The position numbers were made by a program, and so were the translations under genes. From the NCBI GenBank assembly GCA_902623685.1, contig CACNUQ010000005.1, positions 44-64,043 on the forward strand: a DNA stretch of 64,000 nt, in the 5' to 3' direction. This document shows, one piece after another, positions 2,649-44,752 of the stretch. The notes below the pieces were generated by a model that worked only from the letters and a program-made list of their open reading frames with translations, had not been told where the DNA came from and made no database searches. The stretch is from an uncultured SAR86 cluster bacterium (GTDB taxonomy: Bacteria > Pseudomonadota > Gammaproteobacteria > Magnimaribacterales > D2472). Positions within the stretch are counted from its first letter, which is position 1; each line of letters begins with the position of its first letter.

Positions 2649-2655
2649 TATATAG

Positions 2656-8385: not shown

Positions 8386-8388
8386 TAA

Positions 8389-11258: not shown

Positions 11259-13077
11259 AAATTTAATTATTTTGTTTGGCCTCTTTATTTTAGGATCCTG
11301 CGTAAGTTCGATTCAACAAAATAATTCTTTGACTATTGCGACTTCATCAGGAATTGCTCAAGGGTCATTAAAACAAGATGTTATTTCATGGGAGGACATC
11401 CCTTATGCGATACCACCTGAAGGAGATTTGCGATGGAAAGCACCTAGATCATTAATTGCGCCTGAGTTAGTCATTCAACGTCAAGAGGGGAACGGCTGTC
11501 TACAAGAAGCAAGTATTTATGCAGGCATTCAAGGTGAAGGCATTGTTGGCCAAGAAGATTGTTTGTATCTGGATATTAGAGCCCCTGTAAAAAATTTAAA
11601 TAGAAGATTGCCTGTTATGTTTTGGATTCACGGGGGCGGAAATACTTCAGGCATTAAAGATTATTATGATTTTTCTGAGTTGATACGAAGACATCAAGTT
11701 CTTGTTGTAACAATTAATTATCGTTTAGGCCCTATGGGATGGTTTACACATCCCGCAATTCAAGGACTTCAAAATGGACTTGATAAAACCTCTAATTTTG
11801 GAACTCTTGATATAATTGAGGCTTTAAAATGGGTACAAAAAAATATTCAAAATTTTGGTGGTGATCCAAATAATATAACAATTTTTGGAGAGTCCGCAGG
11901 AGGTCATAATGTTCTCTCATTGCTTGCTTCGCCTTTAAGCGAGGGTTTGTTTCATAAAGCAATTTCTCAATCAGGATATACGACAACTTTTACCAAAGAG
12001 GAAGCATTTGGGTCCGATCGAAAGGACATATACAAAAATAATTTAGCTGCTGATAAAGTTTTGTCTGCTCACGATTTATCAGGATATGGATCGATAAAAA
12101 ATTTATTTATTAGCAACCAGAAAAAATATGGTGATGATTATCAACGATATTTAAGATCAATTGATGGAAAGGATCTCCTAGAAACATATAAAAAAATTTC
12201 TGAAGACACTTATGATCGGCTACCTATACTAACCAGAGATGGAATTGTAGTTCATATTGACGGGATGCTTGCTGGATTAGCCGCAGCTAAAAAGAAAAAT
12301 AATATTCCAGTCATTGCTGGATCAAATAAAGATGAACTTTCTCTTTGGCTTGGTTCAAATAGGTATTTTGTAGATGCTTCTTTCCCTTTTACTAAGCTCA
12401 TTCCTTTGCCTAAAATAGTTTTTAAAAGAGAAAATCTGTACAAACTTTGGGTGAAAACGCGATCGCAGGGTTGGAAATTAAGAGGTGTTGACGAACCCTT
12501 AATGGAGTTAGAAAAGTCTGGAAATAATTCTTTATATGCATACAGATTTGATTGGGATGATCAAGCTTCATCTTACTTTGCAGATTTTCCAAACCTTATT
12601 GGATCTGCTCATGGAATTGAAATTTCATTTATCACTGGAGATTTCAAATTTGGTCCCATTGGCAGATATGTTTATCCCAAGGGAGAGCTTCGAAATCAAA
12701 TGCAAGAAACAATGATGAATGCTTGGGCATCTTTTGCAAAAACAGGTGTTCCTATAACTGGAAAAGGCGTTGACTGGGAAAAGTTTGACTCTAAAAATAG
12801 AAAATTTCTTAAACTTGACTCTGATAAATATCTATCTTTGGATCAAGAGATGCTTTCCCTTGAGTTTATTTTAGGCAATCTTAAATTATCTCCAACAGGA
12901 ACTCTCTTAGAAAAATGTCTTTTAGCAGAAGAAACATTTTTTAATATCGGAGACCGAATGGATAGGGAGTTTTTAGCATGGGATAATTCAGTTTGCGAGC
13001 AGTTTGATATGCTCAAAGAGAGGAAGAAGATTGAAACTGATTTAATTGAAGAATATGGTTCAGCAAGCGTCTTTTAA
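11236..13077 (+). CDS. Carboxylesterase type B, lipoprotein
   Basis: Lipobox (FILGS-C), PVMFWIHGGGN, INYRLGPMGW and GESAGG. It is a tandem paralogue of the preceding gene and overlaps its 3' end by 23 nt. Confidence 0.85.
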   Translation: MNLRVTFKNLIILFGLFILGSCVSSIQQNNSLTIATSSGIAQGSLKQDVISWEDIPYAIPPEGDLRWKAPRSLIAPELVIQRQEGNGCLQEASIYAGIQGEGIVGQEDCLYLDIRAPVKNLNRRLPVMFWIHGGGNTSGIKDYYDFSELIRRHQVLVVTINYRLGPMGWFTHPAIQGLQNGLDKTSNFGTLDIIEALKWVQKNIQNFGGDPNNITIFGESAGGHNVLSLLASPLSEGLFHKAISQSGYTTTFTKEEAFGSDRKDIYKNNLAADKVLSAHDLSGYGSIKNLFISNQKKYGDDYQRYLRSIDGKDLLETYKKISEDTYDRLPILTRDGIVVHIDGMLAGLAAAKKKNNIPVIAGSNKDELSLWLGSNRYFVDASFPFTKLIPLPKIVFKRENLYKLWVKTRSQGWKLRGVDEPLMELEKSGNNSLYAYRFDWDDQASSYFADFPNLIGSAHGIEISFITGDFKFGPIGRYVYPKGELRNQMQETMMNAWASFAKTGVPITGKGVDWEKFDSKNRKFLKLDSDKYLSLDQEMLSLEFILGNLKLSPTGTLLEKCLLAEETFFNIGDRMDREFLAWDNSVCEQFDMLKERKKIETDLIEEYGSASVF

Positions 13078-13079
13078 TA

Positions 13080-15245
13080 ATGACTTCACCTTCATCTAAT
13101 AATCAAATACTTTTTTTATTTTTTGGTTTAATTTTTATTTTTGGTTGTGGTTCTGATGTTGATCCAGGAAAGATCGAGGGCGCTCCTCGAGCTAGTGAAT
13201 CTATTTATGAACAAGATTTAAAATTTTTAAAGACAAAAGATGCATTATTTGGAGATGAATTAAGCGAAACATCACAAATATTATTTGGAGATTTGCATGT
13301 TCATACAACATATTCAATAGATGCATTTACTCTAGAGTTACCAATGATGGGGCTTCAGGGCGTGCATGATAGTTCTATGGCTTGTGATTTTGCCCGTTAT
13401 TGCGCAAATTTAGATTTTTTTAGTTTTAATGATCATGCTGAAGGTTTAACACCTGAGCATTGGCGTCAACAAAATAAGATTGTTGAACAATGCAATGTTT
13501 CAAATAATGACCCTGTAACAAATGATTTGGTTGTTTTTCCAGGTTGGGAGTGGACTCAAATTGGTACGACAAAAGAAAATCATTGGGGCCATAGAAATGT
13601 TATCTTTAAGGACATTTATAACTTGCCAGCAAGGCCAATTGGCGCAAGAACTCCCGAGTCTGGATTAGGAGTTTTCGACACCACTGAGCAAGCTGTGGGC
13701 GCCAGATGGATGGACATTTTTAATTTTAAACGTTATTCAGATTTGAAATGGCTTTTGAATGAAGTTAGGAATATTCCGTATTGCGAAGAGGGAGTTAAGT
13801 CAACAGAATTACCTTTAGATTGTTATGAGTATGCAAGTTCGCCTAAAGAACTTTTTTCCAAGCTCGATGAGTGGAATTATGACAACATCGTTATTCCCCA
13901 TGGACAGTCTTGGGGCTACCATGTTCCATTAGGTACTTCTTGGGATAATCGTTTGAATGCAGATGGCCATGATCCTGATAAGCAAATATTGTTAGAAATA
14001 ATGTCGGGTCATGGAAATAGTGAAGAATACAGAGACATATCATCGGCAAATTTTTTACAAGATGGCGAAATGATTTGTCCTGAGCCAACTCAAGACTTTT
14101 TACCATGTTGCTGGCAAGCTGGTGAAATGCAAAAAAAACGCTGTAATGGGCTCTCCGAAGAAGAATGCAGTGCAAGAGTTGAGTTAGCTAAAAAATATAC
14201 TTTAGCTGGAGGCCCTTATACTAATATGGTTTTTCCAGAAGCTAAGCCAGAGGAATGGCTAAGTTGCGATCAATGCACGGATTGTTTTAAACCTGCATTC
14301 AATTACAGACCTAAACAATCTGCTCAATATGCATTAGCAATCTCTAATTTCGATCAATCTGAAGAAGATCCACAAAGATATAATTTTGGTTTTATAGCTT
14401 CCACAGATGATCATACCGCCAGACCTGGAACCGGTTATAAACAATATGAAAGACGTAAGATGACCTTTGCTACCGGAGTCAAATCAAAAATGTGGGAATA
14501 TAAATATAAAGCTGAAGATCCAAATTTTCCAGAGATACCAAAAATTATCCCAGGTGAAAGTCAGCCTGATAGTGAGAGGGTTTCAAGCTTTGTTTACCCT
14601 GGCGGAATCTTAGCGGTTCATTCAAATGGGAGAGGTAAGGATGCAATTTGGTCTGCTTTAAAAAATAAAAATGTATATGGGACAAGTGGTCCCAGGATAC
14701 TACTATGGTTTGATTTGATTAATTCTCCTGATGGCAAAGTTCCCATGGGATCTGAAATTACAATGAGCCAAAATCCAAGATTTATTGTTAAAGCTGCCGG
14801 TAGTTTTAAACAAAATAGTGGCTGCTCTGATGAATCAATAGATGCTCTTTCGTCTGATAGATTAGAATATCTCTGTGCCGGTGAATGTTATAATCCAACC
14901 AATGAGCGGCACATTCTGGAGCGCATAGAGGTTATAAAGATTACCCCACAATCATATGTTGGTGAATCTATTAAAACATTAATTCAAGATCCTTGGATGT
15001 CAATTCCTTGTAATGGAAAAAGCGAATGTATTATTGAATTTGAGGATCCAAATTTTTCTCGAGATAGTGTTTATTATGTAAGAGCAATACAAGAAGAAAC
15101 CCTAGCAATTAATGGATCATCTATATCAGAAAGAAAGGAATTTAAACTTTGTAAAGGTAGCTTTAGAACCAATCTCAACGATAATTGTCTAAGTCCAGCC
15201 AATGAGCGGGCATGGTCATCACCAATATATGTAAATAAGCCTTAA
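13080..15245 (+). CDS. DUF3604-family (PHP-like metal-dependent) lipoprotein
   Basis: Lipobox (FIFG-C). N-terminal GDLHVHTTYSIDAF metal-binding motif and FNDHAE, typical of DUF3604. 721 aa. Confidence 0.65.
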   Translation: MTSPSSNNQILFLFFGLIFIFGCGSDVDPGKIEGAPRASESIYEQDLKFLKTKDALFGDELSETSQILFGDLHVHTTYSIDAFTLELPMMGLQGVHDSSMACDFARYCANLDFFSFNDHAEGLTPEHWRQQNKIVEQCNVSNNDPVTNDLVVFPGWEWTQIGTTKENHWGHRNVIFKDIYNLPARPIGARTPESGLGVFDTTEQAVGARWMDIFNFKRYSDLKWLLNEVRNIPYCEEGVKSTELPLDCYEYASSPKELFSKLDEWNYDNIVIPHGQSWGYHVPLGTSWDNRLNADGHDPDKQILLEIMSGHGNSEEYRDISSANFLQDGEMICPEPTQDFLPCCWQAGEMQKKRCNGLSEEECSARVELAKKYTLAGGPYTNMVFPEAKPEEWLSCDQCTDCFKPAFNYRPKQSAQYALAISNFDQSEEDPQRYNFGFIASTDDHTARPGTGYKQYERRKMTFATGVKSKMWEYKYKAEDPNFPEIPKIIPGESQPDSERVSSFVYPGGILAVHSNGRGKDAIWSALKNKNVYGTSGPRILLWFDLINSPDGKVPMGSEITMSQNPRFIVKAAGSFKQNSGCSDESIDALSSDRLEYLCAGECYNPTNERHILERIEVIKITPQSYVGESIKTLIQDPWMSIPCNGKSECIIEFEDPNFSRDSVYYVRAIQEETLAINGSSISERKEFKLCKGSFRTNLNDNCLSPANERAWSSPIYVNKP

Positions 15246-15667
15246 TTAGAATTTTGTTGCTTAATTTGATTTGCAGTTACCCTTTTTATCTTTAATAACT
15301 CAGCTATTTTAAAGTAAAGATTTTCCTCATATGCATCAACAACTGAATCAGCAGTAACTAACTCCCATAATATTTTTAGTAAATCTTTTTTTTCTTCTTT
15401 GCTATAGGTTTCATTAATTTTTTTTACAAAAGGATAAAAAGAAACTGATTCTTGGGCCCCATCAATAATTTTTCTAATGATTGTTGAAACTTTGGTATCT
15501 TCACCAGAAATTAAGCTCGCTCTATCTTTGATAATTTTTAACTCAGCTTCATCAAGTTTTCCATCACTAATTGCTATTTCAAACATAAGCCTTAATACAA
15601 CATCTGCTTCTTGATGATTATCGATCAAATCTACCGTTGGCTTTTTTTTAAATAAATTTTTTAACAT
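15242..15667 (-). CDS. TerB-like / DjlA N-terminal-like domain protein
   Basis: 141 aa helical protein with a TerB-family pattern (ADVVLRLMFEIAISDGKLDEAELKIIKD ... LLKILWELVTADSVVDAYEENLYFKIAELLKI). Confidence 0.55.
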   Translation of the reverse strand: MLKNLFKKKPTVDLIDNHQEADVVLRLMFEIAISDGKLDEAELKIIKDRASLISGEDTKVSTIIRKIIDGAQESVSFYPFVKKINETYSKEEKKDLLKILWELVTADSVVDAYEENLYFKIAELLKIKRVTANQIKQQNSN

Positions 15668-16242
15668 ATTTTGAATCTATTTTTTAAATTTTGTTTTGGA
15701 AAATTGAAGAATGTTCCAGCAATAATCAGAAAATCCAAAGCAATTGATCTGTTGATAATATACGCTTCATCAATTTCAGCAAGTTTTTTTGGATCACTCA
15801 TATCATATCCAAGTATTTGCGCTAATCCAGTAATGCCAGGCTTTACCATGAAAATATTTTTTAACGATCTTTCTTTTAAGAGTTTCTCCTGAGTCACCAA
15901 TCCCGGTCTGGGACCTACTATATTAAGCTCTCCCTTAAGAACATTAATCAATTGAGGAAATTCATCAAGTTTTATTTTTCTAATCCACTTGCCATTTTTA
16001 AGCATATTTGAGTCTTTAAGTTCATGAGTACCAATATTTGGAGTATTTTTTTTAAGCGTTCTAATCTTAATTATATTAAAACTTACTTTATCTAAACCAA
16101 CCCTTTCTTGAATAAAAAATATTGGAAAACCATCTTCAATGATAATGATTGAACCTACAATAATTATTAATGGACTTATGCTAATTAAACCAATCAAACA
16201 AACAACATTTCTAAAAAGTTTAATAATTTTTTTAAGCATCAT
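15661..16242 (-). CDS. Small monotopic phosphoglycosyl transferase (bacterial sugar transferase, PglC/WbaP C-terminal type)
   Basis: One N-terminal hydrophobic helix, then the bacterial sugar transferase signature (IFFIQERVG ... DEFPQLINVLKGELNIVGPRP ... KPGITGLAQI). Confidence 0.85.
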   Translation of the reverse strand: MMLKKIIKLFRNVVCLIGLISISPLIIIVGSIIIIEDGFPIFFIQERVGLDKVSFNIIKIRTLKKNTPNIGTHELKDSNMLKNGKWIRKIKLDEFPQLINVLKGELNIVGPRPGLVTQEKLLKERSLKNIFMVKPGITGLAQILGYDMSDPKKLAEIDEAYIINRSIALDFLIIAGTFFNFPKQNLKNRFKIC

Positions 16243-16281: not shown

Positions 16282-17136
16282 ATGAATATTGCTTTAACTG
16301 GATCTTCTGGATCAATAGGGTCTATTCTGGTTAATGACCTAAAGTCAGCAGGGCATAAAATTTTTTGTATATCATCCTCTCATTCATTTCATGAAAAAAA
16401 TATCTATACATATGATGAAATTATCTCACGTAAAATTAATTTTGAAGCTGATTTAATTTTTCATCTTGCTTCAATTAACTCCAATCTAGATGAATCTCAG
16501 ATAGATGAAGAATTAAATTTATGTAAAAGCGTATTCAAAGTGATGGAAGTTACGGGATGCTCTAATCTAATTTTTTTTAGCTCAATTAAGGTTTATGGAG
16601 AAAACTCTTTTGAAATTAATCAATTTACTGAAGATTCAATTTTGGAGCCAAAAAGTTCTTATGGAGAGGCAAAAAAGCAATGTGAAAAATTAATTACCGA
16701 GATGTCATCAATTTTAAACTTTAATTATCTTATTTTACGACTGCCTCCACTACTTATAGAGCATTCTATTTCCAGTCTTGCAAAATTATTTTTTATAGTC
16801 AAAAAAGGAATTCCTATACCATCATTCAAAATCGGAGATGAAAATGAAAGAAGCTTCTTATCATATAAGCTTTTACTTTCTTCAATTAAAATTTTTCTTA
16901 ATGATAAAACAAAAATTAATAATGAAATATTTAATTTATCCGATGAAAGGGCTATCTCAACGCATGATCTTTTTGAAAAAATCGGAATTCAGCTGAATAA
17001 AAAACCAAAAATTATTTATCTTCCTGATTTCATTTTTAATCAAATGATAAAATTAAATAGATTACAATTGATTATGTGTCGATTATTTGGAAATTTTAAA
17101 ATTTCTAGTGAAAAGTTTAAAAGTACTTTTCTTTAA
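16282..17136 (+). CDS. NAD-dependent epimerase/dehydratase family protein
   Basis: N-terminal GSSGSIGS Rossmann motif and a YGEAK catalytic YxxxK motif. 284 aa. Confidence 0.7.
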   Translation: MNIALTGSSGSIGSILVNDLKSAGHKIFCISSSHSFHEKNIYTYDEIISRKINFEADLIFHLASINSNLDESQIDEELNLCKSVFKVMEVTGCSNLIFFSSIKVYGENSFEINQFTEDSILEPKSSYGEAKKQCEKLITEMSSILNFNYLILRLPPLLIEHSISSLAKLFFIVKKGIPIPSFKIGDENERSFLSYKLLLSSIKIFLNDKTKINNEIFNLSDERAISTHDLFEKIGIQLNKKPKIIYLPDFIFNQMIKLNRLQLIMCRLFGNFKISSEKFKSTFL

Positions 17137-17168: not shown

Positions 17169-19070
17169 ATGAATTTAGTGGGTCAAAAACTTAACTCCTT
17201 ATCTAGACTTCGTAAAACTATTTTAGTTTTGTTAAATGATTTATTTCTAGCTTTTACGTGTTGGCTTGTTTTTGGCCCTCCAATGGCAACAATTATTTCG
17301 AGCAATACAACTGTAAATTTATTGAGCTTAATTTATTCACAAATATACTCTTTTATTTTTCCAGCTGCTTTGTTTGTTTCATATTTCTATTTTTTTGGAT
17401 ATTACAGATCGTTAATTCGATTCTTTGATTCGCGAGATTCGATTTTTCTTTGTGTTTCTGGATCATTAATTTTCGGTTTTTCTTGGGCTGCAATTTATAT
17501 TTTGCAATTTGACTTAATAGAAACAAGTCTATTATCAGTAATTCTTCTTCAGGGATTGCTTTTATCTGCTGTTTTGTATGCTTTTATTAATATTTCAAGA
17601 GATGTAGCAAAGTACTTTATTTATCCGTATCAAAAAAATGAAAATGCATTACCAGTTATTATCTATGGATCGGGTAAATCTGCAAAAGCTTTATTAGATG
17701 CATTTCAAAATGATCCTTTGAAAAATGTTATTGCAATTTATGATGACTCACCAACTTTTAAAAATTTGCAAATTAATAATGTTCCTATCATCTCCAAGTT
17801 TAAGAATTTAGAAAAATTAAAAGCAAAGCACAACAATTTACAAGTATTTCTTGCTTTGCCTAACATTAAGACTGAGAAGAGAAGAAAAATAATTTCAGAC
17901 TTAGAAACTATTAAAGTTGCTGTAAGAACTGTTCCGACTCTTACCGAGTTAATTTCAGATCAAAAAAAGATGACTGATATTCAAGAGCTATCGATTGATG
18001 ATATTTTGCCTGGAGCTAGAATATCCAATTTTACACTGAGCAATGTAGAGTCAAAGAATTTTCTTATTTCTGGTGCAGGTGGATCGATTGGCTCTGAAAT
18101 TACTAGGCAATTATTATTAAGTAATCCTCAACAGATAATTTTATTTGAACTTTCTGAATATAACCTTTTTAAAATTGAAAGAGAATGTAGTTCGTTGATT
18201 GATTCAAAAAAACTTCAATCAAAAATTGTTCCAATACTTGGCGATATCAGGGATAAAGAAAATTTAAACTTTGTTTTCCAAAAATATAAAATAGATCATG
18301 TATATCACGCTGCAGCATATAAGCATGTCCCCTTGGTAGAGGATAAAAATAATTTAGCAAAAGCTGCTGAAAATAATATTCTTGGCACATATAATCTTGC
18401 TCAAATTTCATTAGACCATCAGGTAAATTCTTTTGTCATGATCTCAACAGATAAGGCAGTTCGTCCTTCCAATGTTATGGGTGCTACAAAAAGATTTGCA
18501 GAGATCGTAATTCAATCTATAAATGATAAATCAACATTTACAAAATTTAGCATGGTTAGATTTGGAAATGTAATTAACTCCTCTGGCTCAGTTATTCCAT
18601 TGTTTCTTGATCAAATTTCTCAAGGCGGCCCAGTTACAGTAACTGACAAAGAGGTAAAGAGATATTTTATGACCATTCCTGAGGCATCAAGTTTAGTTTT
18701 GCAAGCAGGTGAAATGGCCAAAGGTGGAGAAGTTTTTATTTTAGATATGGGCGAACAAATTAAAATATACGATCTCGCAAGAAAATTGATTCATTTATCT
18801 GGAAGAAATTATGTTGAAAATCATAATGATGATGGCATACAAATTTTAGAAATTGGGCTCAGGCCTGGTGAGAAAATGTTTGAAGAGTTACTTATTTCTG
18901 GCACTGAAATCAAAACCGAAAACGAAAAAATCTTTATGGCAAATGAAACATTCATTGATTATAAAAAATTAAAGCCCGTTCTTGAAAAAATTCAAACTAA
19001 TATCGCAAATTATAATAATGAAGAAATTTTAAATATATTAACCGAAAATGTTGAGGGCTTTGATCGATGA
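17169..19070 (+). CDS. Membrane-anchored nucleotide-sugar 4,6-dehydratase (PglF/CapD/WbpM family)
   Basis: About four N-terminal TM helices, a second Rossmann domain GAGGSIGSE, AAAYKHVPLVE and ISTDKAVRPSNVMGATKR signatures. 633 aa. Confidence 0.85.
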   Translation: MNLVGQKLNSLSRLRKTILVLLNDLFLAFTCWLVFGPPMATIISSNTTVNLLSLIYSQIYSFIFPAALFVSYFYFFGYYRSLIRFFDSRDSIFLCVSGSLIFGFSWAAIYILQFDLIETSLLSVILLQGLLLSAVLYAFINISRDVAKYFIYPYQKNENALPVIIYGSGKSAKALLDAFQNDPLKNVIAIYDDSPTFKNLQINNVPIISKFKNLEKLKAKHNNLQVFLALPNIKTEKRRKIISDLETIKVAVRTVPTLTELISDQKKMTDIQELSIDDILPGARISNFTLSNVESKNFLISGAGGSIGSEITRQLLLSNPQQIILFELSEYNLFKIERECSSLIDSKKLQSKIVPILGDIRDKENLNFVFQKYKIDHVYHAAAYKHVPLVEDKNNLAKAAENNILGTYNLAQISLDHQVNSFVMISTDKAVRPSNVMGATKRFAEIVIQSINDKSTFTKFSMVRFGNVINSSGSVIPLFLDQISQGGPVTVTDKEVKRYFMTIPEASSLVLQAGEMAKGGEVFILDMGEQIKIYDLARKLIHLSGRNYVENHNDDGIQILEIGLRPGEKMFEELLISGTEIKTENEKIFMANETFIDYKKLKPVLEKIQTNIANYNNEEILNILTENVEGFDR

Positions 19071-20176
19071 AAAAAAAATTTATTTTTACTTTAAACGTTT
19101 ACCTGCTTTTTTTCAGTGTATCAATTTTTGCTGATGTTCTTGATGATTTAATCCTTGAGCCAGGATTTAGTATTTCTATTTTTGCTGAAAACCTTGATTC
19201 TCCAAGACAAATGGTTGAAGGAAAGAATGGTACTATTTTTGTAGGCGAAAGAAACGGCAAAATATTAGCACTAAGAGATTTAGATAATAATGGTCAAGTT
19301 GATTCAAAAATTTTAGTTGCAGATGGACTTACATATTCGACAGGAGTAAGTTTGTTTAATGGCGATTTATATTTTTCTGAGATCAGCCAGATTTGGAAAA
19401 TTGAAAATATTGAAAATTGGATTGCTAATTACTCTGTGAATTCAAAATTGCCTGAAAAAATTTTAGTGGTTGATAACTTGCCAGATGATAAATGGCATGG
19501 TTGGAAGTGGCTTCAACATGATCAAGATGGAAGTTTATATTTTAATATTGGCGCTCCATGTAATATTTGTTTATCAGAGAATCCTCAGTTTGCTTCAATT
19601 TTAAAATATAAAGACGGCAATCTAAGTTATGTAGCTAAAGGAGTTAGAAATACAGTTGGATTCGATTTTCATCCAGTAACTAACAAGCTCTATTTTACTG
19701 ATAATGGAAGGGACTGGCTTGGTGATGATTCTCCATCCTGTGAGCTAAACAGGCTTGATTTTGAAGGGCAATTTTTTGGTTATCCATTCAAACATGCATC
19801 AAATGTGATTGATCCAGAGTTTGGCAATATGAATCCTGGCTATGATTTTGTAGATCCTATATTGGAGTTAGGGGCTCATGTCGCACCTACTGGGGTTAGT
19901 TTTTATGATGGTGACATGTTCCCTGAAAAAATGCGAAATAATCTTTTTATTGCATTGCATGGATCATGGAATCGAACCAAAAAAGTTGGTTATAAACTGA
20001 TTCGCGTTCAAATAGATAAGGAAGGCAACGTTTTAAATACATCTGACTTTGTAAGTGGTTGGCTGAGGGATGAAAAGGTTTCTGGCAGACCTTCTGCACC
20101 TATCATGAAAAGTGATGGCAGCTTATTGTTGTCTGATGATAAGGCAAATGTTATTTATAGAATTACATATAAATAA
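19067..20176 (+). CDS. Secreted PQQ-dependent sugar (glucose/sorbosone) dehydrogenase-like beta-propeller
   Basis: Signal peptide (LLFFSVSIFA), then the soluble GDH / sorbosone dehydrogenase family pattern (HGWKWLQHDQDGSLYFNIGAPCN, TDNGRDWLGDDSP-CELN, HVAPTGVSFY). ATGA overlap with the upstream gene. Confidence 0.65.
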   Translation: MKKKFIFTLNVYLLFFSVSIFADVLDDLILEPGFSISIFAENLDSPRQMVEGKNGTIFVGERNGKILALRDLDNNGQVDSKILVADGLTYSTGVSLFNGDLYFSEISQIWKIENIENWIANYSVNSKLPEKILVVDNLPDDKWHGWKWLQHDQDGSLYFNIGAPCNICLSENPQFASILKYKDGNLSYVAKGVRNTVGFDFHPVTNKLYFTDNGRDWLGDDSPSCELNRLDFEGQFFGYPFKHASNVIDPEFGNMNPGYDFVDPILELGAHVAPTGVSFYDGDMFPEKMRNNLFIALHGSWNRTKKVGYKLIRVQIDKEGNVLNTSDFVSGWLRDEKVSGRPSAPIMKSDGSLLLSDDKANVIYRITYK

Positions 20177-20181
20177 TTATT

Positions 20182-21204
20182 ATGAGGGTAGGTATTGCTG
20201 GATATGGCGTTGTTGGAAAAAAAAGATATTCTTCCATCATTAAAAATACCTCATTTAAAGTAACTGATATTTCAGAGGTTAATCCCACTGCCAGAGATGA
20301 GATACCTGATGGAGTAAATGTTTTTAATAATTATCAAGATCTTATTTTAAAGGCTGATTTAGATATTATTTTTATAAGCTTGCCAAATAAATATGCCTCA
20401 GACGCAGTTTCATTAAGTCTAAAAAAAGGCTTGAATGTTTTCTGTGAAAAACCTCCAGCAAGAACACTTGAAGAACTGCTGGACGTACAAAAAATATATA
20501 AAAAAAATCCTCATGTAAAATTAATGTATGGATTCAACCATAGATTTCATTTGTCCGTAGAAGAAGCTAAAACAATAATTGATAGTAAAAATTATGGAAA
20601 GGTTATTAATCTGAAAGGCGTTTATGGGAAGTCACAAATGATAGATTTCAACCAAACCGATTGGAGGACCAAAAGAGAGGAGTCTGGAGGGGGCATATTA
20701 TTAGATCAAGGAATACACATGCTTGACTTGATAAGGTATTTATCTGGAGAAAATTTCTCAAATGTCTTCTCTTTTATTAATAATGCATTCTGGAATTTTG
20801 ATGTAGAAGATAATGCATATGTTTTGATGCAATCTCCTAAAGGTGTAGTGGCTCAATTGCACTCATCTGCTACACAGTGGAGGCATGTATTTAATTTAGA
20901 AATTACTCTTCAAAAAGGCTCGCTTTTGCTTGGAGGCCTGCTTACAGGCTCAAAAAGTTATGGTGATGAAACATTACGAATCATAACTTCTAATCCTGAG
21001 AAAGATAAGGGGATGCCAGAAGAGACAACTAAAAAATATAATGAAGATGTATCATGGGATAATGAAATAAAGTATTTTTCAAACTGCTTGGCTAACAATT
21101 TAGAAATTGAAAGGGGAAGCATTGGGGACGCTGTAGAAACAATGAAGTTGGTTGAAACTATCTATAAAGCTGACCCTAAATGGAAAAAGAAATACTATAA
21201 CTAA
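20182..21204 (+). CDS. Gfo/Idh/MocA family oxidoreductase
   Basis: N-terminal Rossmann segment MRVGIAGYGVVGKKR, and the EKP motif (VFCEKPPA) typical of the family. Confidence 0.75.
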   Translation: MRVGIAGYGVVGKKRYSSIIKNTSFKVTDISEVNPTARDEIPDGVNVFNNYQDLILKADLDIIFISLPNKYASDAVSLSLKKGLNVFCEKPPARTLEELLDVQKIYKKNPHVKLMYGFNHRFHLSVEEAKTIIDSKNYGKVINLKGVYGKSQMIDFNQTDWRTKREESGGGILLDQGIHMLDLIRYLSGENFSNVFSFINNAFWNFDVEDNAYVLMQSPKGVVAQLHSSATQWRHVFNLEITLQKGSLLLGGLLTGSKSYGDETLRIITSNPEKDKGMPEETTKKYNEDVSWDNEIKYFSNCLANNLEIERGSIGDAVETMKLVETIYKADPKWKKKYYN

Positions 21205-21217
21205 AAAAGGGTCATTT

Positions 21218-21796
21218 ATGAGCACATCTTCAGCATATTCAACTAATTACTTAGAGTATTTAACTGATCTTATTTCTCAATTAGATCGAGAGGCAATAGG
21301 CCAATTTGCAGATTTGCTTCTTGAATCTAGAGAGTCTTCAACTACTACATTTTTTCTCGGTAATGGAGGTAGTGCATCTACTGCCACTCATTTTGTAAAT
21401 GATGTGTCTCTTGGAAGTCGGCAATTTGAGAAACCTTTTCGAGCAATCAGTCTTTGCGATAATCAGGCAGTTATAACAGCCATTGCAAATGATGATGGAT
21501 ACGAAAATATATTTTTGCAACAGCTTCAAACCTTAGCTAAGCCTGGAGATAATATTGTTTGCATATCTGCATCAGGGAACTCTAAAAATTTAATTAAAGC
21601 GGTTGAATATGCAAAAGATAATGGAATTTTTGTAGTTGGATTAACTGCTTTTGATGGGGGATATTTAAAAGATAATTGTAATTTAAATATTCATGTTCCA
21701 ACTAAAGTTGGTGAATATGGCCCCGCTGAAGATTTGCACATGGTAGTTTGTGGTTTAGTTGGATCTTATTTTAGAGAAAAATTTTTGGATGCTTGA
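21218..21796 (+). CDS. SIS-domain sugar-phosphate isomerase (GmhA-like)
   Basis: FFLGNGGSASTATHFVNDV, AIANDDGYENIF and CISASGNSKN match GmhA-type SIS motifs. The ATG at 21218 follows AAAAGGG. The track start at 21152 is a TTG inside the upstream gene. Confidence 0.75.
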   Translation: MSTSSAYSTNYLEYLTDLISQLDREAIGQFADLLLESRESSTTTFFLGNGGSASTATHFVNDVSLGSRQFEKPFRAISLCDNQAVITAIANDDGYENIFLQQLQTLAKPGDNIVCISASGNSKNLIKAVEYAKDNGIFVVGLTAFDGGYLKDNCNLNIHVPTKVGEYGPAEDLHMVVCGLVGSYFREKFLDA

Positions 21797-22529
21797 TTTA
21801 AATCAATGCCTCAATACTGCAAAGTCTGCAGCTTTATTAGCTGGAAAGTTCTTAGTAAATGCAAAAGGGCAAAGCTTGGAAATATTATCAAATACCGGCA
21901 GAGATCTTAAGCTTCAATTAGATATTGACACAGAAAAACTTATTAAAGACCATATAACTTCTGACAGCTCATATCCAATTTTAGGAGAGGAAACAGGTTC
22001 AAGTGGAGATCTTGGCAACACATATTGGGTTGTAGATCCTCTAGATGGAACTTCAAATTTTTTAAGAGGTATACCTATAAGCTGTGTTTCAATTGCCTTA
22101 ATGCAAGATATGAAACCCATGCTTGGAGTAATATACGATTTTAACCATGATGAAATATATTGGGGTCATAAGGAATCTAAGGCTTATATTGACGACAAGG
22201 AAATTAGCGTCTCATCTCTTTCACAAAAAAGCGAGTCTACACTTGTGACCGGAATTCCAGCCAAAACAAATTATTCTGATAGCGAGTTTAGTGAAATGAT
22301 ATCTAATTTTCAGGCATGGAAAAAAATCAGAATGATCGGGTCTGCAGCTATGGCTGCGTGCTATGTTGCTTCAGGAAAAGCTGAGACTTACAAAGAAGAT
22401 GGAATTTTTCTTTGGGACATTGCAGCTGGCGCTGCTATTGTAAATGCTGCAGGAGGCCTTGCATCTATTACTAATATTCAAACTGATTATCGGGTAAATG
22501 CAAAATTTACCAATAATATAATAGAGTAA
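21789..22529 (+). CDS. Inositol monophosphatase-family sugar phosphatase
   Basis: IMPase motifs ILGEE, WVVDPLDGTSNF and WDIAAG. The start at 21789 (ATGCTTGA overlap with the upstream stop) gives a SuhB-like N-terminus. An earlier alternative start lies at 21759. Confidence 0.75.
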   Translation: MLDLNQCLNTAKSAALLAGKFLVNAKGQSLEILSNTGRDLKLQLDIDTEKLIKDHITSDSSYPILGEETGSSGDLGNTYWVVDPLDGTSNFLRGIPISCVSIALMQDMKPMLGVIYDFNHDEIYWGHKESKAYIDDKEISVSSLSQKSESTLVTGIPAKTNYSDSEFSEMISNFQAWKKIRMIGSAAMAACYVASGKAETYKEDGIFLWDIAAGAAIVNAAGGLASITNIQTDYRVNAKFTNNIIE

Positions 22530-22533
22530 TAAT

Positions 22534-23499
22534 TTGAATACTATAGATACAGTTGCAGTTGCATCAAGATCCTTTTCAAAAAATGATGACTTGGTAAAAA
22601 ATCTGCAAAGCAAGTACTCATCAGTCATATTAAATAATTTTGGTAAAACTCTTCAAGGAGACGAGTTGGTTAATTTTTTGATGCCTGCAACAAAAGCAAT
22701 AATAGGTATTGAAGAATTAACTGAGCCAGTTCTTGATAAACTTTCAAAACTAAAAGTTATCAGCAAATATGGCGTTGGTTTGAATAATCTTGATTTAAAG
22801 CTTCTTAAAAAAAGAAATATTAGATTAGGATTTACTCCAGGTGTAAATAAACAGAGTGTTGCAGAATTGACGCTTACGCTAATACTAATTGGTCTTAAAA
22901 AAATTCAGGACAATAACATAGATATAATTAATGGTAACTGGTCACAAGAAAAAGGGTCAGAGCTTTATGGAAAAAATATTGGATTGCTTGGATTTGGAAA
23001 TATTGGTCAAAAACTAGTATCGCTTTTGCAACCTTTTGACTGCAAGATCTCATTTTTTGATGAAAAAAAATTTTCTAAGGAGGATATATCAAATATTTCA
23101 TCAAACTTAAATTTTGAACCTAATTTGATAAAGCAAATGTCTTTACAGCAGGTATTAAAAGAATCAGATATATTAAGTATTCATCTTCCCTTGAATGCAT
23201 CAACTGAGAATATAATCTCATTAGAAGAACTTAATGAATTGAGATCAAATGTTTGCATTGTGAATACTGCAAGAGGCGGGATTGTAAATGAGAAGGATCT
23301 TTATATTTTTCTATCAGAAAATCCTCGCAGTTATGCAGGATTCGATGTTTACAAGGAAGAGCCTGCTATAAATAATCCATTGTTTAAATTAAAAAACTTT
23401 TTTGGAACTTCGCATCGGTCTAGCCTTACAAATGAAGGCATTCTTTCAATGGGGCTGGCTGCTATTAATGGATTAGATGATAATATTGATATCACCTAA
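22534..23499 (+). CDS. D-isomer-specific 2-hydroxyacid dehydrogenase (PGDH-like)
   Basis: NAD-binding motif GLLGFGNIGQKL, NTARGGIVNE and a histidine near the C-terminus (GTSHRSS). TTG start. Confidence 0.75.
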   Translation: MNTIDTVAVASRSFSKNDDLVKNLQSKYSSVILNNFGKTLQGDELVNFLMPATKAIIGIEELTEPVLDKLSKLKVISKYGVGLNNLDLKLLKKRNIRLGFTPGVNKQSVAELTLTLILIGLKKIQDNNIDIINGNWSQEKGSELYGKNIGLLGFGNIGQKLVSLLQPFDCKISFFDEKKFSKEDISNISSNLNFEPNLIKQMSLQQVLKESDILSIHLPLNASTENIISLEELNELRSNVCIVNTARGGIVNEKDLYIFLSENPRSYAGFDVYKEEPAINNPLFKLKNFFGTSHRSSLTNEGILSMGLAAINGLDDNIDIT

Positions 23500-23511
23500 C
23501 AGATAAACTTT

Positions 23512-24240
23512 ATGAGTAAACTTTCTATCGGTACATGGTTAAGCTTGCCTAATGAATCTATAGCCGAAATTTTTGCTAATGCTGGATATGAATGGATCGT
23601 AATTGATCTTGAGCATAGCAGCATTGGCATTAATCAAGCAGAACAATTAATTAGAGTAATAGATTTAGCTGGATCAAAGCCATTTGTTAGATTGTCTGGG
23701 CATGATCCTTCGCAGATAAAAAGGGTTTTAGATGCTGGAGCTAAAGGTATTTTAGCTCCTATGATAGAGACTGTTCATCAAACAGAAAGCATAATTTCTG
23801 CATGCCAATATCCACCTGATGGAACTAGAGGCATGGGCCTTGCTAGAGCTCAAGGGTATGGAGAAAATTCTGCTAAAAATAAATATATTAATCAAAAAGT
23901 AAATGAAATTGAGATATATGTTCAAATTGAATCTAAAAAGGGCTTAAAAAATTGTAAAGAAATTTTTTCTAAGAATATAAATGGCTATTTTATTGGTCCG
24001 TATGATCTTTCAGCATCTTTAAATAATCCAGGAAAATTTGATACCAATGAATTTTATAGTGCTGAAAAAATTATATTATCTGCAGCAAAAGAGGAGGGCA
24101 TCAAATGTGGATATCATCTTGTTGAACCCGACAAAGACAAAATTAATGAACTTAATGATAAAGGATATAATATGATTGCTTTTAGTGTTGACATCAGAAT
24201 GCTAGATGTCACTGCAAGACTTCCTTTTAATTTAAAATGA
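23512..24240 (+). CDS. HpcH/HpaI-family class II (pyruvate-specific) aldolase
   Basis: GTWLSLPN, IDLEHS, PFVRL, MIETV and YVQIES follow the HpcH/HpaI aldolase pattern. 242 aa. Confidence 0.7.
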   Translation: MSKLSIGTWLSLPNESIAEIFANAGYEWIVIDLEHSSIGINQAEQLIRVIDLAGSKPFVRLSGHDPSQIKRVLDAGAKGILAPMIETVHQTESIISACQYPPDGTRGMGLARAQGYGENSAKNKYINQKVNEIEIYVQIESKKGLKNCKEIFSKNINGYFIGPYDLSASLNNPGKFDTNEFYSAEKIILSAAKEEGIKCGYHLVEPDKDKINELNDKGYNMIAFSVDIRMLDVTARLPFNLK

Positions 24241-24995
24241 AAAAAACTTTAGGAGTTATTCCGGCAAGAATGTCTTCATCTCGCTTTCCAGGAAAACCGC
24301 TTGAAAAGATTCTTAATATTCCTATGTTAGCTCACTGTTATGAAAGAGCGCTTTTATCAGGTGTCTGCGATAATTTATTGATTGCAACACCAGATCAAGA
24401 AATCATAGATTGGGCTAATCAATTTGAAATACCTTCGATATTAACTAGTCATTCTCATAAGAGAGCTACTGAACGGGCAAAAGAGACATTAGATATTCTT
24501 GCAAATGATGGTCTGCACTATGATTTAGTGCTTTTGTTACAGGGAGATGAGCCTCAAATTTTTCCCCAAGATATTAGCAATCTCAAACAAGCATTTTCTG
24601 ATAAAGAACTTGAAGTAGTAAATTTAGTTTTTCCTATTTCAGATGATGGCCTTGAAGATCCCAATGTAGTAAAAGTAGCTCTTGATAAAAATCTAACTAT
24701 TCATTTTTTCTCTAGATCGCATATTCCACACGACTGCGTAAGTGGATATAGACAGTTGGGCATGATAGGTCTAACAAAAAAAGCTCTTAATAACTATGTC
24801 AGTCTTTTACCAACAGCTCTTGAAGAGGTTGAATCCATAGATATGATGAGATTTATTGAAAATGATTTATCAATACAAGGAGTTTTATCTACTTCACAAA
24901 TCCTTGGCGTTGACACACCGCAAGATTTAAAAAAGGTAGAAAAAATAATGATGCATGATAAATTTGTTAATTTATACAAAGAAAAATATATCTAG
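24237..24995 (+). CDS. KdsB/NeuA-family ulosonic-acid cytidylyltransferase
   Basis: The N-terminus GVIPARMSSSRFPGKPL closely resembles E. coli KdsB (IIPARYASTRLPGKPL). LQGDEP motif. ATGA overlap with the upstream gene. Confidence 0.8.
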   Translation: MKKTLGVIPARMSSSRFPGKPLEKILNIPMLAHCYERALLSGVCDNLLIATPDQEIIDWANQFEIPSILTSHSHKRATERAKETLDILANDGLHYDLVLLLQGDEPQIFPQDISNLKQAFSDKELEVVNLVFPISDDGLEDPNVVKVALDKNLTIHFFSRSHIPHDCVSGYRQLGMIGLTKKALNNYVSLLPTALEEVESIDMMRFIENDLSIQGVLSTSQILGVDTPQDLKKVEKIMMHDKFVNLYKEKYI

Positions 24996-41748: not shown

Positions 41749-41753
41749 CAATT

Positions 41754-43800: not shown

Positions 43801-43805
43801 ATTAA

Positions 43806-44750: not shown

Positions 44751-44752
44751 CT

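Follow-up and report, generated by a model that had tools for sequence, protein, structure and literature searches.

On balance, we lean toward reading six co-directional genes at 20182-24995 of the window (the whole stretch of 64,000 nucleotides analyzed here, from an uncultured SAR86 cluster bacterium) as the SAR86 version of a widespread, uncharacterized nucleotide-sugar module that would provide surface-glycan synthesis with a CMP-activated 2-keto sugar acid. A pyruvate-dependent route to this compound is the best reading of the block, and a literature search found no paper describing the cassette. The block and its upstream neighbors are:

15661 to 16242, - strand: small PglC-type polyprenyl-phosphate sugar-phosphate transferase, glycan-initiating (PF02397 at 155 bits)
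16282 to 17136, + strand: SDR epimerase/reductase, 284 aa (PF01370)
17169 to 19070, + strand: PglF/WbpM/CapD-type membrane-anchored UDP-HexNAc 4,6-dehydratase, 633 aa (PF02719 at 382 bits)
19067 to 20176, + strand: GSDH/sGDH-like beta-propeller, 369 aa, N-terminal signal peptide (PF07995 at 42.7 bits)
20182 to 21204, + strand: Gfo/Idh/MocA NAD(P) oxidoreductase (GFO), 340 aa; accessory, with a predicted role in tailoring or oxidation
21218 to 21796, + strand: GmhA-like single-domain SIS phosphosugar isomerase, 192 aa; predicted to convert a ketose phosphate to an aldose phosphate, accessory
21789 to 22529, + strand: IMPase-family phosphatase, 246 aa; predicted to dephosphorylate a sugar or ulosonate phosphate
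22534 to 23499, + strand: D-isomer 2-hydroxyacid dehydrogenase, PGDH/glyoxylate-reductase-like, 321 aa, TTG start; invariant core
23512 to 24240, + strand: HpcH/HpaI class II metal-dependent pyruvate aldolase, 242 aa; would form the C-C bond
24237 to 24995, + strand: KdsB-family (PF02348) CTP:ulosonate cytidylyltransferase, 252 aa; predicted last step, CMP-sugar activation

Gene layout and family assignments

The six reading frames and two overlaps described in an earlier sequence-only reading were borne out on the sequence: the SIS and IMPase genes share 8 nt (ATGCTTGA at 21789-21796), the aldolase and cytidylyltransferase genes overlap at ATGA (24237-24240), and the remaining gaps are 4-13 nt. 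A mechanical ORF list begins the SIS and IMPase genes at upstream TTG codons (21152 and 21759); the annotated lengths of their orthologues on public contigs, 192 aa and 246 aa, correspond to the ATG starts at 21218 and 21789 given in that reading. Tight spacing is by itself little proof of an operon because the genome is compact and a photolyase gene also lies close, 14 nt downstream of the block; promoter and terminator scans of the region yielded nothing above shuffled controls. The block can be regarded as more than a chance arrangement because it is kept across 16 SAR86 species and its functions recur across phyla.

All six families named by that reading were recovered as well, each Pfam profile matching above its gathering score: GFO_IDH_MocA and C3 domains in GFO (55.6 and 91.8 bits; PF01408, PF22725, PF02894), SIS_2 (66 bits), Inositol_P (PF00459, 163 bits), 2-Hacid_dh_C (PF02826, 141 bits) with PF00389, HpcH_HpaI (PF03328, 134 bits) and CTP_transf_3 (121 bits). 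The cytidylyltransferase was the only one of the six to pass a curated NCBIfam model, the KdsB subfamily NF003952 (217.5 bits, cut-off 193). The other five fell far below every NCBIfam equivalog cut-off, as exemplified by GFO against iolG (103 vs. 355 bits), SIS against gmhA TIGR00441 (103 vs. 209), the 2-hydroxyacid dehydrogenase against PGDH (175 vs. 454) and the aldolase against HpaI (156 vs. 369). Among solved structures, the closest relatives were inositol dehydrogenases and DgpA for GFO (~80 bits), GmhA for SIS (~82 bits), and archaeal PGDH and glyoxylate reductase for the 2-hydroxyacid dehydrogenase (~117 bits); those of the aldolase include 6r62 (112 bits), annotated "hydroxyketoacid aldolase".

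Except in the SAR86 SIS isomerase, the catalytic motifs of the six enzymes are all intact. They comprise GxGxxG, EKP and DxxxH in GFO; the metal motifs DPLDGT and WDIAAG in the phosphatase; GxGxxG and the Arg, Glu and His of the 2-hydroxyacid dehydrogenase; the equivalents of YfaU His49, Arg74, Glu153 and Asp179 in the aldolase; and PARxxSxRxPGKP, QGDEP and GVDT in the cytidylyltransferase. The isomerase retains its GNGGS and SxSGNS phosphate site, with Asp at the position of GmhA Glu65 and, in SAR86 only, Gly at that of the catalytic His180; absence of this histidine counts against our preferred explanation.

Conservation in SAR86 and recurrence in other phyla

A search for the same synteny in other genomes, a check proposed in the sequence-only reading, returned the gene set in 16 SAR86 species, in the order GSDH-GFO-SIS-IMP-HADH-HpcH-CTase at the same position and down to 48-59% protein identity. 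The SIS gene is deleted in four of these species (L014, L017, L020 and L021) and the GFO gene in two (L020 and L021), showing that both are dispensable, accessory parts of the SAR86 module; these losses also count against the preferred explanation. A block so invariant and syntenic is unlike a typical variable O-antigen sugar, which likewise counts against that explanation and makes a housekeeping role conceivable.

Upstream, the PglF-type dehydratase is far more divergent than the six-gene block (56-87% between SAR86 species), and the SDR gene, 28-77% identical among most of them, therefore belongs to the variable glycan portion. The GSDH-like gene lies in the same gene string, occurring in every SAR86 locus whose sequence covers this position and being absent from other phyla; its product (N-terminus MKKKFIFTLNVYLLFFSVSIFA/DV) is probably periplasmic and hence probably outside the cytoplasmic pathway. 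No transferase for the predicted product was found in the window, a further point against the preferred explanation.

The same functions, in differing gene orders, were found in at least six phyla beyond SAR86 (Bdellovibrionota, Gemmatimonadota, Acidobacteriota, Bacteroidota, Planctomycetota and Desulfobacterota), always among Wzx, Wzy, glycosyltransferase and sugar-modifying genes; the genes belong to surface-glycan loci. GFO is 38-50% identical to its counterparts there, and the 2-hydroxyacid dehydrogenase accompanies the aldolase in every phylum sampled. This universally conserved dehydrogenase is without an obvious job in our scheme, which counts against it. In other phyla a HAD phosphatase takes the place of the IMPase, often with an IMPase as well, and the presence of one or both in most lineages indicates a phosphorylated intermediate; some lineages carry no recognizable phosphatase and a DHQS-like gene instead, which again counts against the preferred explanation. 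A transaldolase of their own is encoded in several cassettes (TIGR02134 at 329 bits, passing its cut-off) and points to metabolism of sedoheptulose-7-P or erythrose-4-P.

The aldolase clade and its cytidylyltransferase

A tree of 71 HpcH-family proteins placed every cytidylyltransferase-linked aldolase in one clade, which contains no characterized member, another point against the preferred explanation. Wherever the contig extends far enough, a PF02348 cytidylyltransferase gene lies close to the clade member, in most cases immediately next to it, whereas none lies near the ~45 other sampled HpcH-family aldolases or E. coli YfaU and GarL. In one lineage the two enzymes are naturally fused: P0385 (cytidylyltransferase-aldolase) is encoded by a single ORF, with the same sequence on contigs of three data sources, and GFO, SIS and 2-hydroxyacid dehydrogenase genes flank it. 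This clade-specific neighborhood in seven phyla, together with the fusion, shows that the two enzymes are functionally coupled.

A grouping with the catabolic HpaI, YfaU/RhmA or GarL aldolases was considered and rejected. Those enzymes share the fold family, the catalytic His, Arg, Glu and Asp, and 30-41% identity with the cassette aldolases, but the latter form a separate clade marked by GPYDL, ARAQGYG and the His in HLVEP, in a biosynthetic context and never one of aromatic or sugar-acid catabolism. The grouping with aromatic-catabolism HpaI that would have spoken against the sequence-only reading was thus not seen. Plasmid-borne hpaI genes were at most 42% identical to the block aldolase among the matches listed, and no cassette-type annotation appeared in the best 25 of them, as judged by annotation and not by flanks.

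The cytidylyltransferase, compared by sequence, does not appear to be an orthodox gammaproteobacterial KdsB. It is 36-39% identical to the cassette cytidylyltransferases vs. 31% to E. coli KdsB, and it scores 86-106 bits against the latter, which itself scores 137 bits against Aquifex KdsB and 219-358 bits against other gammaproteobacterial KdsBs. Its C-terminal sugar-binding domain also carries the clade-wide changes of RHLGIYG to RQxG and EMLEQLR to ESxDMxR relative to E. coli KdsB.

Predicted route and competing explanations

In the following scheme we infer all substrates, including the pyruvate donor and the acceptor sugar, the sequence of reactions, what each dehydrogenase does and the 3-deoxy nature of the product. 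The GmhA-like isomerase would convert a ketose phosphate, with sedoheptulose 7-phosphate as leading candidate, to an aldose phosphate; where its gene is missing, a housekeeping isomerase could substitute. The aldolase, standing in for a PEP-dependent KdsA/NeuB-type synthase, would then join pyruvate enolate to the aldehyde to give a 4-hydroxy-2-keto acid, i.e. a 3-deoxy-2-ulosonic acid phosphate, from which the IMPase-family enzyme (a HAD enzyme in other phyla) would take off the distal phosphate. GFO and the 2-hydroxyacid dehydrogenase may tune oxidation state or configuration before the KdsB-family enzyme places CMP onto the anomeric hydroxyl, and a putative transferase would add the sugar to the glycan begun by the neighboring PglC-like and PglF-like enzymes. 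HpcH-family aldolases are reversible, and relatives such as SwHKA, annotated as hydroxyketoacid aldolases, accept hydroxypyruvate; hence the pyruvate donor and 3-deoxy status are predictions.

The same module could run on other chemistry, with the PGDH-like dehydrogenase and the phosphatase turning 3-phosphoglycerate into hydroxypyruvate as donor, so that a 3-hydroxylated, non-3-deoxy Ko-type 2-ulosonic acid is CMP-activated. This scheme accounts for both enzymes, which are mutually adjacent and constant companions of the aldolase; the best matches of the dehydrogenase are phosphoglycerate dehydrogenases and glyoxylate/hydroxypyruvate reductases, the annotation of 6r62 fits, and the co-occurrence of HAD and IMPase in several cassettes suits two phosphorylated intermediates. 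Given that the PGDH equivalog is missed widely (175 and 237 bits vs. 454) and that we found no precedent for a glycan sugar built from hydroxypyruvate, we consider it unlikely. Rather unlikely, too, is a housekeeping role in which the cytidylyltransferase is the only SAR86 KdsB and the block serves the LPS core with CMP-Kdo or a close analogue, either with kdsA elsewhere or with the aldolase condensing arabinose (5-phosphate) and pyruvate as a non-orthologous KdsA replacement. All 16 SAR86 species have the block, in synteny and well conserved, while upstream glycan genes vary much more, it adjoins core genes (photolyase, aldehyde dehydrogenase, fumarase, guaB), its cytidylyltransferase passes the KdsB-subfamily cut-off, and a second kdsB in SAR86 could not be demonstrated. 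However, this enzyme is farther from E. coli KdsB than is Aquifex KdsB, more similar to its cassette counterparts in other phyla and altered in its sugar-binding domain; other phyla hold the module within Wzx/Wzy loci and not at LPS-core gene sites; and the Kdo route requires neither dehydrogenase. Also against this role, canonical msbA-lpxK-ycaR-kdsB loci occur on AT-rich marine contigs of unproven taxon, whose tetranucleotide signature fits the window (0.88-0.89) as closely as that of a distant true SAR86 genome (0.889).

We regard as improbable that the product is not an ulosonic-type glycosyl donor at all, being a carbocyclic or rearranged C7-C10 acid, or that the aldolase cleaves or epimerizes an intermediate instead of building a chain. 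DHQS-like sugar-phosphate cyclase genes do lie inside the module in Acidobacteriota and the fusion-bearing lineage, 6-phosphogluconolactonase/NagB-like and GlmS-like genes in the Flavobacteriaceae version, and the 2-hydroxyacid dehydrogenase could itself introduce the 2-keto group into an aldonic acid phosphate; but the SAR86 block has neither a DHQS-like nor a lactonase gene, the fusion favors reactions that are consecutive or closely linked, and to our knowledge all PF02348 enzymes of known function activate 2-keto sugar acids. That the six are unrelated metabolic genes packed into a compact genome is already strongly disfavored and, in our estimate, very improbable: gaps are tiny genome-wide, as with the unrelated photolyase, and the promoter and terminator scans stayed at control level, but the same functions travel together in seven phyla in differing orders, the aldolase clade is specific to a cytidylyltransferase context and the two genes exist as a fusion.

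Relation to known pathways

The parallel with the CMP-Kdo pathway (KdsD, KdsA, KdsC and KdsB) drawn in the sequence-only reading held for the families (SIS isomerase, C3-unit condensation, phosphatase and PF02348 cytidylyltransferase) and for the lack of a PEP-dependent KdsA/NeuB-type synthase, none of which lies in the neighborhood of the block. No KdsA, KdsC or KdsD homologues were found in the window or in ~200 fetched loci, and NeuB matched a single locus (L073) among those searched for it. The parallel is looser than proposed in that SIS and GFO are dispensable, the SAR86 isomerase is without its catalytic His, and the 2-hydroxyacid dehydrogenase, though an invariant core member, corresponds to no enzyme of the Kdo scheme. 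Condensation in SAR86 would fall to a class II pyruvate aldolase instead of the PEP-dependent KdsA, the GmhA-like isomerase lacks the CBS domains found in KdsD, an IMPase-family phosphatase stands in place of KdsC, there are two extra dehydrogenases, and the cytidylyltransferase is only ~31% identical to E. coli KdsB.

The nonulosonic and Kdn pathways (NeuB/PseI/LegI or Kdn-9-P synthase, a phosphatase and NeuA/PseF/LegF) resemble the module in the predicted CMP-activated 2-keto-3-deoxy sugar acid for surface glycans and in the placement of genes in glycan loci, cassette L073 adjoining its NeuB gene; in contrast, no NeuB-type synthase lies in the SAR86 loci or, L073 apart, in the others searched for it, and the SAR86 block has no aminotransferase or N-acetyltransferase. 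Formally the same chemistry, pyruvate plus aldose to 3-deoxy-2-ulosonic acid, is performed by the N-acetylneuraminate lyase NanA and Kdo aldolase in reverse. These lyases are catabolic, either of class I (Schiff-base) or poorly defined, and we know of none encoded with a cytidylyltransferase as a dedicated biosynthetic partner. The lincomycin octose pathway, in which the LmbR transaldolase and the GmhA-like isomerase LmbN yield a higher-carbon aldose phosphate, resembles the transaldolase and GmhA-like isomerase pairing of cassettes L073, L074 and L082; the SAR86 block, however, has no transaldolase, and the downstream kinase and GDP activation of lincomycin are unrelated chemistry.

SAR86 is an abundant ocean bacterium, and the module that it shares with at least six other phyla is probably the source of an acidic cell-surface sugar not described before, made by a route unlike every textbook pathway.

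Composition of the gene block

Between 20182 and 24995 of the window, six ORFs run in one direction, and Pfam places each of them above gathering score in the family proposed by the sequence-only reading (Gfo/Idh/MocA, SIS_2, Inositol_P, D-2-hydroxyacid dehydrogenase, HpcH_HpaI and CTP_transf_3). The overlaps reported there, ATGCTTGA at 21789-21796 and ATGA at 24237-24240, are both in the sequence, and its ATG starts for the isomerase and the phosphatase agree with the gene calls on public contigs. A promoter and terminator scan gave no signal over shuffled controls.

Genes of the block, with active-site motifs
20182-21204, + strand, Gfo/Idh/MocA oxidoreductase (GFO): EKP, DxxxH
21218-21796, + strand, GmhA-like SIS isomerase (SIS)
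21789-22529, + strand, IMPase-family phosphatase: DPLDGT, WDIAAG
22534-23499, + strand, D-2-hydroxyacid dehydrogenase (2-HADH): GxGxxG, Arg, Glu, His
23512-24240, + strand, HpcH/HpaI aldolase: His, Arg, Glu, Asp
24237-24995, + strand, cytidylyltransferase: PARxxSxRxPGKP, QGDEP, GVDT

Only the cytidylyltransferase passed a curated NCBIfam cut-off (KdsB subfamily NF003952, 217.5 vs. 193 bits); the remaining five proteins are far under every equivalog threshold, and are thus family members without a named function. The GFO carries a Rossmann and a C-terminal domain with EKP and DxxxH, as befits the Gfo/Idh/MocA family, and fails the iolG equivalog (103 vs. 355); the 2-HADH has both domains, GxGxxG and the Arg-Glu-His catalytic set of D-2-hydroxyacid dehydrogenases, and fails the PGDH equivalog (175 vs. 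454); the phosphatase is an IMPase-family member by PF00459 (163 bits) and by both metal motifs (DPxDGT and WDxAAG), and reaches no NCBIfam equivalog cut-off. On motif inspection, the active sites are complete, with SIS as the one oddity.

The SIS protein retains the SIS fold, GNGGS and the phosphate-binding site SxSGxS (SxSGNS in SAR86), and as a single-domain, GmhA-like protein it differs from KdsD, which joins SIS to two CBS domains. It differs from GmhA as well, since it missed the TIGR00441 equivalog (102.6 vs. 209.45 bits) and carries changes at Glu65 and His180, the catalytic residues of GmhA: Asp replaces Glu65 in the whole clade, whereas Gly replaces His180 in SAR86 only, with His retained in homologues of other phyla. 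The SAR86 proteins with this Gly are encoded at 21218-21796 (+) of the window and in three fetched comparison loci (L012, L018 and L022).

The aldolase and its catabolic relatives

The aldolase scored 133.6 bits against PF03328 (gathering cut-off 25), and the equivalents of YfaU His49, Arg74, Glu153 and Asp179, comprising the Glu/Asp metal ligands and the catalytic Arg/His, are kept in all aligned members of its clade. It fell outside the HpaI, RhmA and GarL equivalogs (156, 134 and 132 bits vs. 369, 441 and 407) and belongs to no characterised HpcH equivalog. The sequence-only reading had recognized that the enzyme might group with catabolic HpaI aldolases of aromatic degradation. A neighbour-joining tree was computed for 71 HpcH-family sequences drawn from the fetched loci, with YfaU and GarL of E. 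coli added. One clade holds all the aldolases with a cytidylyltransferase in the locus; about 45 other HpcH members, together with YfaU and GarL, lie outside it, none with a cytidylyltransferase nearby. Two Flavobacteriaceae members of the clade, scored by BLAST as having no cytidylyltransferase, turned out to have a divergent PF02348 gene directly upstream. Also unlike HpaI, RhmA and GarL, the aldolase sits among biosynthetic neighbours and in no catabolic operon, and a tblastn search of plasmids yielded, among the matches listed, only catabolic hpaI genes at ≤42% identity. With its separate clade and its linkage to the cytidylyltransferase, we reject the notion of a catabolic HpaI that merely happens to sit here; on this refuting condition, the outcome favours the sequence-only reading.

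A natural fusion supports this linkage. Searching the SAR86 aldolase against 1.84 billion cluster representatives returned, as the seventh-best match, a 478-aa protein (P0385) in which CTP_transf_3 spans residues 5-183 and HpcH_HpaI spans residues 245-468. It is encoded at 8001-9437 of comparison locus L209 (also in L210 and L211), in an organism of about 40% GC, as a single uninterrupted ORF that is identical across contigs from ENA, JGI and Logan samples, and is flanked by GT2, GFO, SIS, 2-HADH, SDR and DHQS-like genes; the GFO of this locus and the aldolase domain of P0385 are 50% and 46% identical to the SAR86 proteins, respectively. Other multi-domain candidates from the same search were tandem aldolase repeats rather than fusions. 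Taken together with the neighbourhood data, the fusion is strong evidence that the aldolase and the cytidylyltransferase work in the same pathway.

Comparison with KdsB and the search for a second kdsB

Besides its NF003952 score and catalytic motifs, by which it belongs to the KdsB family, the cytidylyltransferase is under the TIGR00466 cut-off (141.5 vs. 155.2) and is closer to the corresponding enzymes of other phyla (36-39% identity, 150-170 bits) than to E. coli KdsB (31% identity, 86-106 bits). E. coli KdsB itself scores 219-358 bits against other gammaproteobacterial KdsBs, 177 bits against KpsU and 137 bits against Aquifex KdsB. In the C-terminal sugar-binding domain, RHLGIYG and EMLEQLR of E. 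coli KdsB become RQxG and ESxDMxR in the clade, which is also missing an 11-residue insert. These low scores and clade substitutions argue against an orthodox gammaproteobacterial KdsB, an argument that falls short of proving a second kdsB in SAR86.

In metagenomes, the canonical KdsB motif RH[IL]GIY[AG]YR, encoded by AT-rich codons, was picked up at 120 loci, most of which are true kdsB. One contig matched best by tetranucleotide composition; it proved to belong to Methylophilaceae/OM43. A second group (loci L204-L208, L212 and L213), found on abundant AT-rich marine contigs with a GC of about 0.33 (0.326), has the gene order lolCD-exbBD-msbA-lpxK-ycaR-kdsB-glnB-nadE; its tetranucleotide frequencies correlate at 0.88-0.89 with non-homologous parts of the window, compared with 0.889 for a distant true SAR86 genome and 0.847 for OM43. 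By this composition match, the group may be the canonical SAR86 kdsB locus, an assignment we regard as putative. SAR86 genome papers and a supplement made no mention of Kdo genes.

With regard to the remainder of the Kdo pathway, tblastn with E. coli KdsA (at E<1e-3), KdsC and KdsD gave no match, either in the 64 kb of the window or among the roughly 200 loci fetched, and no KdsA-type Pfam family (DAHP_synth_1) is among the neighbours of the block. NeuB is likewise absent from the window, bearing out the earlier remark that no KdsA/NeuB-type synthase is present; among the loci checked for NeuB, a homologue was found only in L073.

Genomic context in SAR86

The block occurs at 100% identity in a SAR86 single-cell assembly, with orthologues in 15 SAR86-titled species representatives. 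Comparison of window proteins with 16 SAR86 loci by tblastn showed that the string GSDH-GFO-SIS-IMP-HADH-HpcH-CTase-(photolyase)-Aldedh holds the same position even in the most distant genomes (48-59% identity), so that the shared synteny sought for the six genes is found across SAR86. Upstream on the same strand are an SDR, a membrane PglF/WbpM-type 4,6-dehydratase and a GSDH-like beta-propeller gene, with a PglC-type initiating transferase on the opposite strand; downstream are core genes (photolyase, aldehyde dehydrogenase, fumarase and guaB). SDR, PglF and PglC diverge much faster than the block (SDR 28-56% where the block has 70-95%), which places the block at the edge, itself conserved, of a glycan region that is otherwise variable. 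SIS is the best-conserved block protein within SAR86 (69-99% identity), yet it is cleanly deleted in four of 16 species, alone in two and together with GFO in another two; the invariant SAR86 core therefore comprises the IMPase, 2-HADH, aldolase and cytidylyltransferase.

The GSDH (soluble-glucose-dehydrogenase)-like gene (19067-20176, +), whose start overlaps the stop of the PglF-like gene, accompanies the block in all SAR86 species and is not found in the corresponding loci of other phyla. Its clear signal peptide places the protein probably in the periplasm, outside a cytoplasmic nucleotide-sugar pathway, and on this ground a role as a cytoplasmic lactonase of the pathway was rejected.

Other features were noted in the window. 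Upstream of the glycan genes (96-4821 and 9762-15245) are a Wza/SLBB-type polysaccharide export protein and YjbH, followed by two tandem carboxylesterases and a DUF3604 protein. A second glycan region contains a DprA/DprE1/DprE2-like arabinose-donor set, methyltransferases, a deacetylase and glycosyltransferases. By appearance, its donor genes make up a putative pathway for a polyprenyl-phosphate arabinofuranose-type donor, here in a gammaproteobacterium of SAR86.

Donor genes at 40264-46042, + strand, in order
UbiA-family phosphoribosyltransferase with an N-terminal HAD domain: NF006088, 583 bits; decaprenyl-phosphate phosphoribosyltransferase models, 142 bits
DprE1-like FAD oxidase: 322 bits, under the cut-off of 500
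DprE2-like SDR: 131 bits
Epimerase
PRK07233 flavoprotein

Next come methyltransferases, a polysaccharide deacetylase, GT1 and GT2. Three large ORFs on the minus strand have no Pfam or NCBIfam match.

Large ORFs
46534-48096, - strand, 520 aa, inside the second glycan region
52483-53691, - strand, 402 aa, inside the second glycan region
56409-58694, - strand, 761 aa, between a VTC-domain gene and a DUF4956 gene

The cassette in other phyla

Beyond SAR86, the closest aldolases (40-47% identity) belong to Bdellovibrionales, Gemmatimonadaceae, Acidobacteriota, Flavobacteriaceae and one very large, roughly 70%-identical group that includes Planctomycetes, Desulfobacteraceae and Smithella MAGs. With the Gemmatimonadaceae aldolase as the seed, 6590 proteins were retrieved at E<1e-20, a count that mixes other HpcH-family aldolases with the large group. 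In each such locus, a PF02348 cytidylyltransferase (directly adjoining in most) and a 2-hydroxyacid dehydrogenase lie close to the aldolase, the usual companions being GFO, a GmhA-like SIS and a phosphatase (HAD, often with IMPase), and the genes surrounding the cassettes encode Wzx, Wzy, glycosyltransferases, methyltransferases, acyltransferases and SDRs. The commonest order is PFTS-motif protein (TIGR04417) ... SDR - SDR - CTase - GFO - methyltransferase - aldolase - HAD - 2-HADH - SIS - transaldolase, in which the transaldolase clears its equivalog cut-off. This recurrence identifies the six functions of the sequence-only reading as the conserved core of a cross-phylum cassette, of which the SAR86 version is stripped-down.

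Variants were also seen. The Flavobacteriaceae TMED81 version comprises a GlmS-like amidotransferase, a small CTP_transf_like protein, a divergent PF02348 cytidylyltransferase, the aldolase, an SDR, a 6-phosphogluconolactonase/NagB-like protein and 2-HADH. In Acidobacteriota and the fusion-bearing lineage, the module includes a DHQS-like sugar-phosphate cyclase, and both of these loci are without a HAD or IMPase phosphatase. A family of 447-591 aa with no Pfam match goes with the cassette in other phyla, as does the PFTS-motif protein; both are candidate transferases for the product. HMMs from the two families match nothing in the SAR86 window, and the 520-aa and 402-aa orphan ORFs, considered for the same role, have no NCBIfam match.

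Cassette variants and associated genes in comparison loci
TMED81 version: L028 4943-10250; L025 618-5612
DHQS-like cyclase: L026 13410-14486 (Acidobacteriota); L209 5176-6243 (fusion-bearing lineage)
447-591-aa family: L073 14064-15407; L071 16479-17978; L074 13855-15393; L082 16547-18091; L024 4675-6450; L083 13414-15186

Discussion

To our knowledge, all established CMP-ulosonic acid routes (Kdo, Kdn, sialic, legionaminic and pseudaminic) employ a PEP-dependent synthase, and a full-text search of the literature found no paper describing the cassette. The module resembles the Kdo, Kdn and sialic-acid pathways in its working; where it departs from every one of these is the condensing enzyme and, in SAR86, the isomerase and the phosphatase as well. 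As compared with the CMP-Kdo pathway, it has no PEP-dependent KdsA, and its SAR86 phosphatase is of PF00459 whereas KdsC is a HAD enzyme; as compared with nonulosonic acid pathways, it has no adjoining NeuB/PseI/LegI synthase in SAR86. From the sequence evidence, we rate the module as probable CMP-ulosonic-acid biosynthesis with a non-orthologous, pyruvate-dependent condensing enzyme, in keeping with the CMP-activated 3-deoxy-ulosonic acid of the sequence-only reading.

We surmise that SIS would convert a ketose phosphate to an aldose phosphate, which the aldolase would condense with pyruvate to yield a 3-deoxy-2-ulosonate phosphate; the phosphate would be removed by IMPase or HAD, the sugar tailored by GFO and 2-HADH, and the CMP-sugar formed by the cytidylyltransferase. 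The dedicated transaldolase and GmhA-like isomerases of sister cassettes point to acceptors derived from sedoheptulose-7-P, giving a C10 acid, with arabinose-5-P (C8) and hexose-6-P (C9) equally allowed. This scheme is weakest in its account of the invariant 2-HADH. As an attractive alternative, 2-HADH, with the adjoining phosphatase, would convert 3-phosphoglycerate to hydroxypyruvate as the aldol donor, in which case the product would be a 3-hydroxylated acid. As an idea only, the DHQS-like lineages lacking a phosphatase may lose the phosphate via DHQS-type chemistry. Returning to pyruvate as the donor, we tentatively entertain, as a real possibility somewhat short of probable, that the cassette represents an unrecognised, widespread route in which a class II pyruvate aldolase stands in for KdsA/NeuB, making a new CMP-keto-sugar acid, possibly a C10 compound built from a heptose phosphate, that is conserved in the surface glycan of SAR86 and members of at least six other phyla.

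The interest of the module rests on its breadth across phyla and on the abundance of SAR86. Genes of the cassette are currently annotated as catabolic aldolases ('2-dehydro-3-deoxyglucarate aldolase', 'RhmA') and plain KdsB; if the reading is true, a dedicated pyruvate-aldolase route would give bacterial glycobiology a new kind of biosynthetic logic and, probably, a sugar that is new as well. The prediction is directly testable, as a SAR86 isolate and methods for CMP-sugar profiling exist now. SAR86 is among the most abundant bacterial groups of the surface ocean, and because the entire SAR86 order has kept the module, SAR86 cells probably carry its product on their surface as a constant feature; such a constant surface sugar would bear on phage recognition, grazing and dissolved organic matter.
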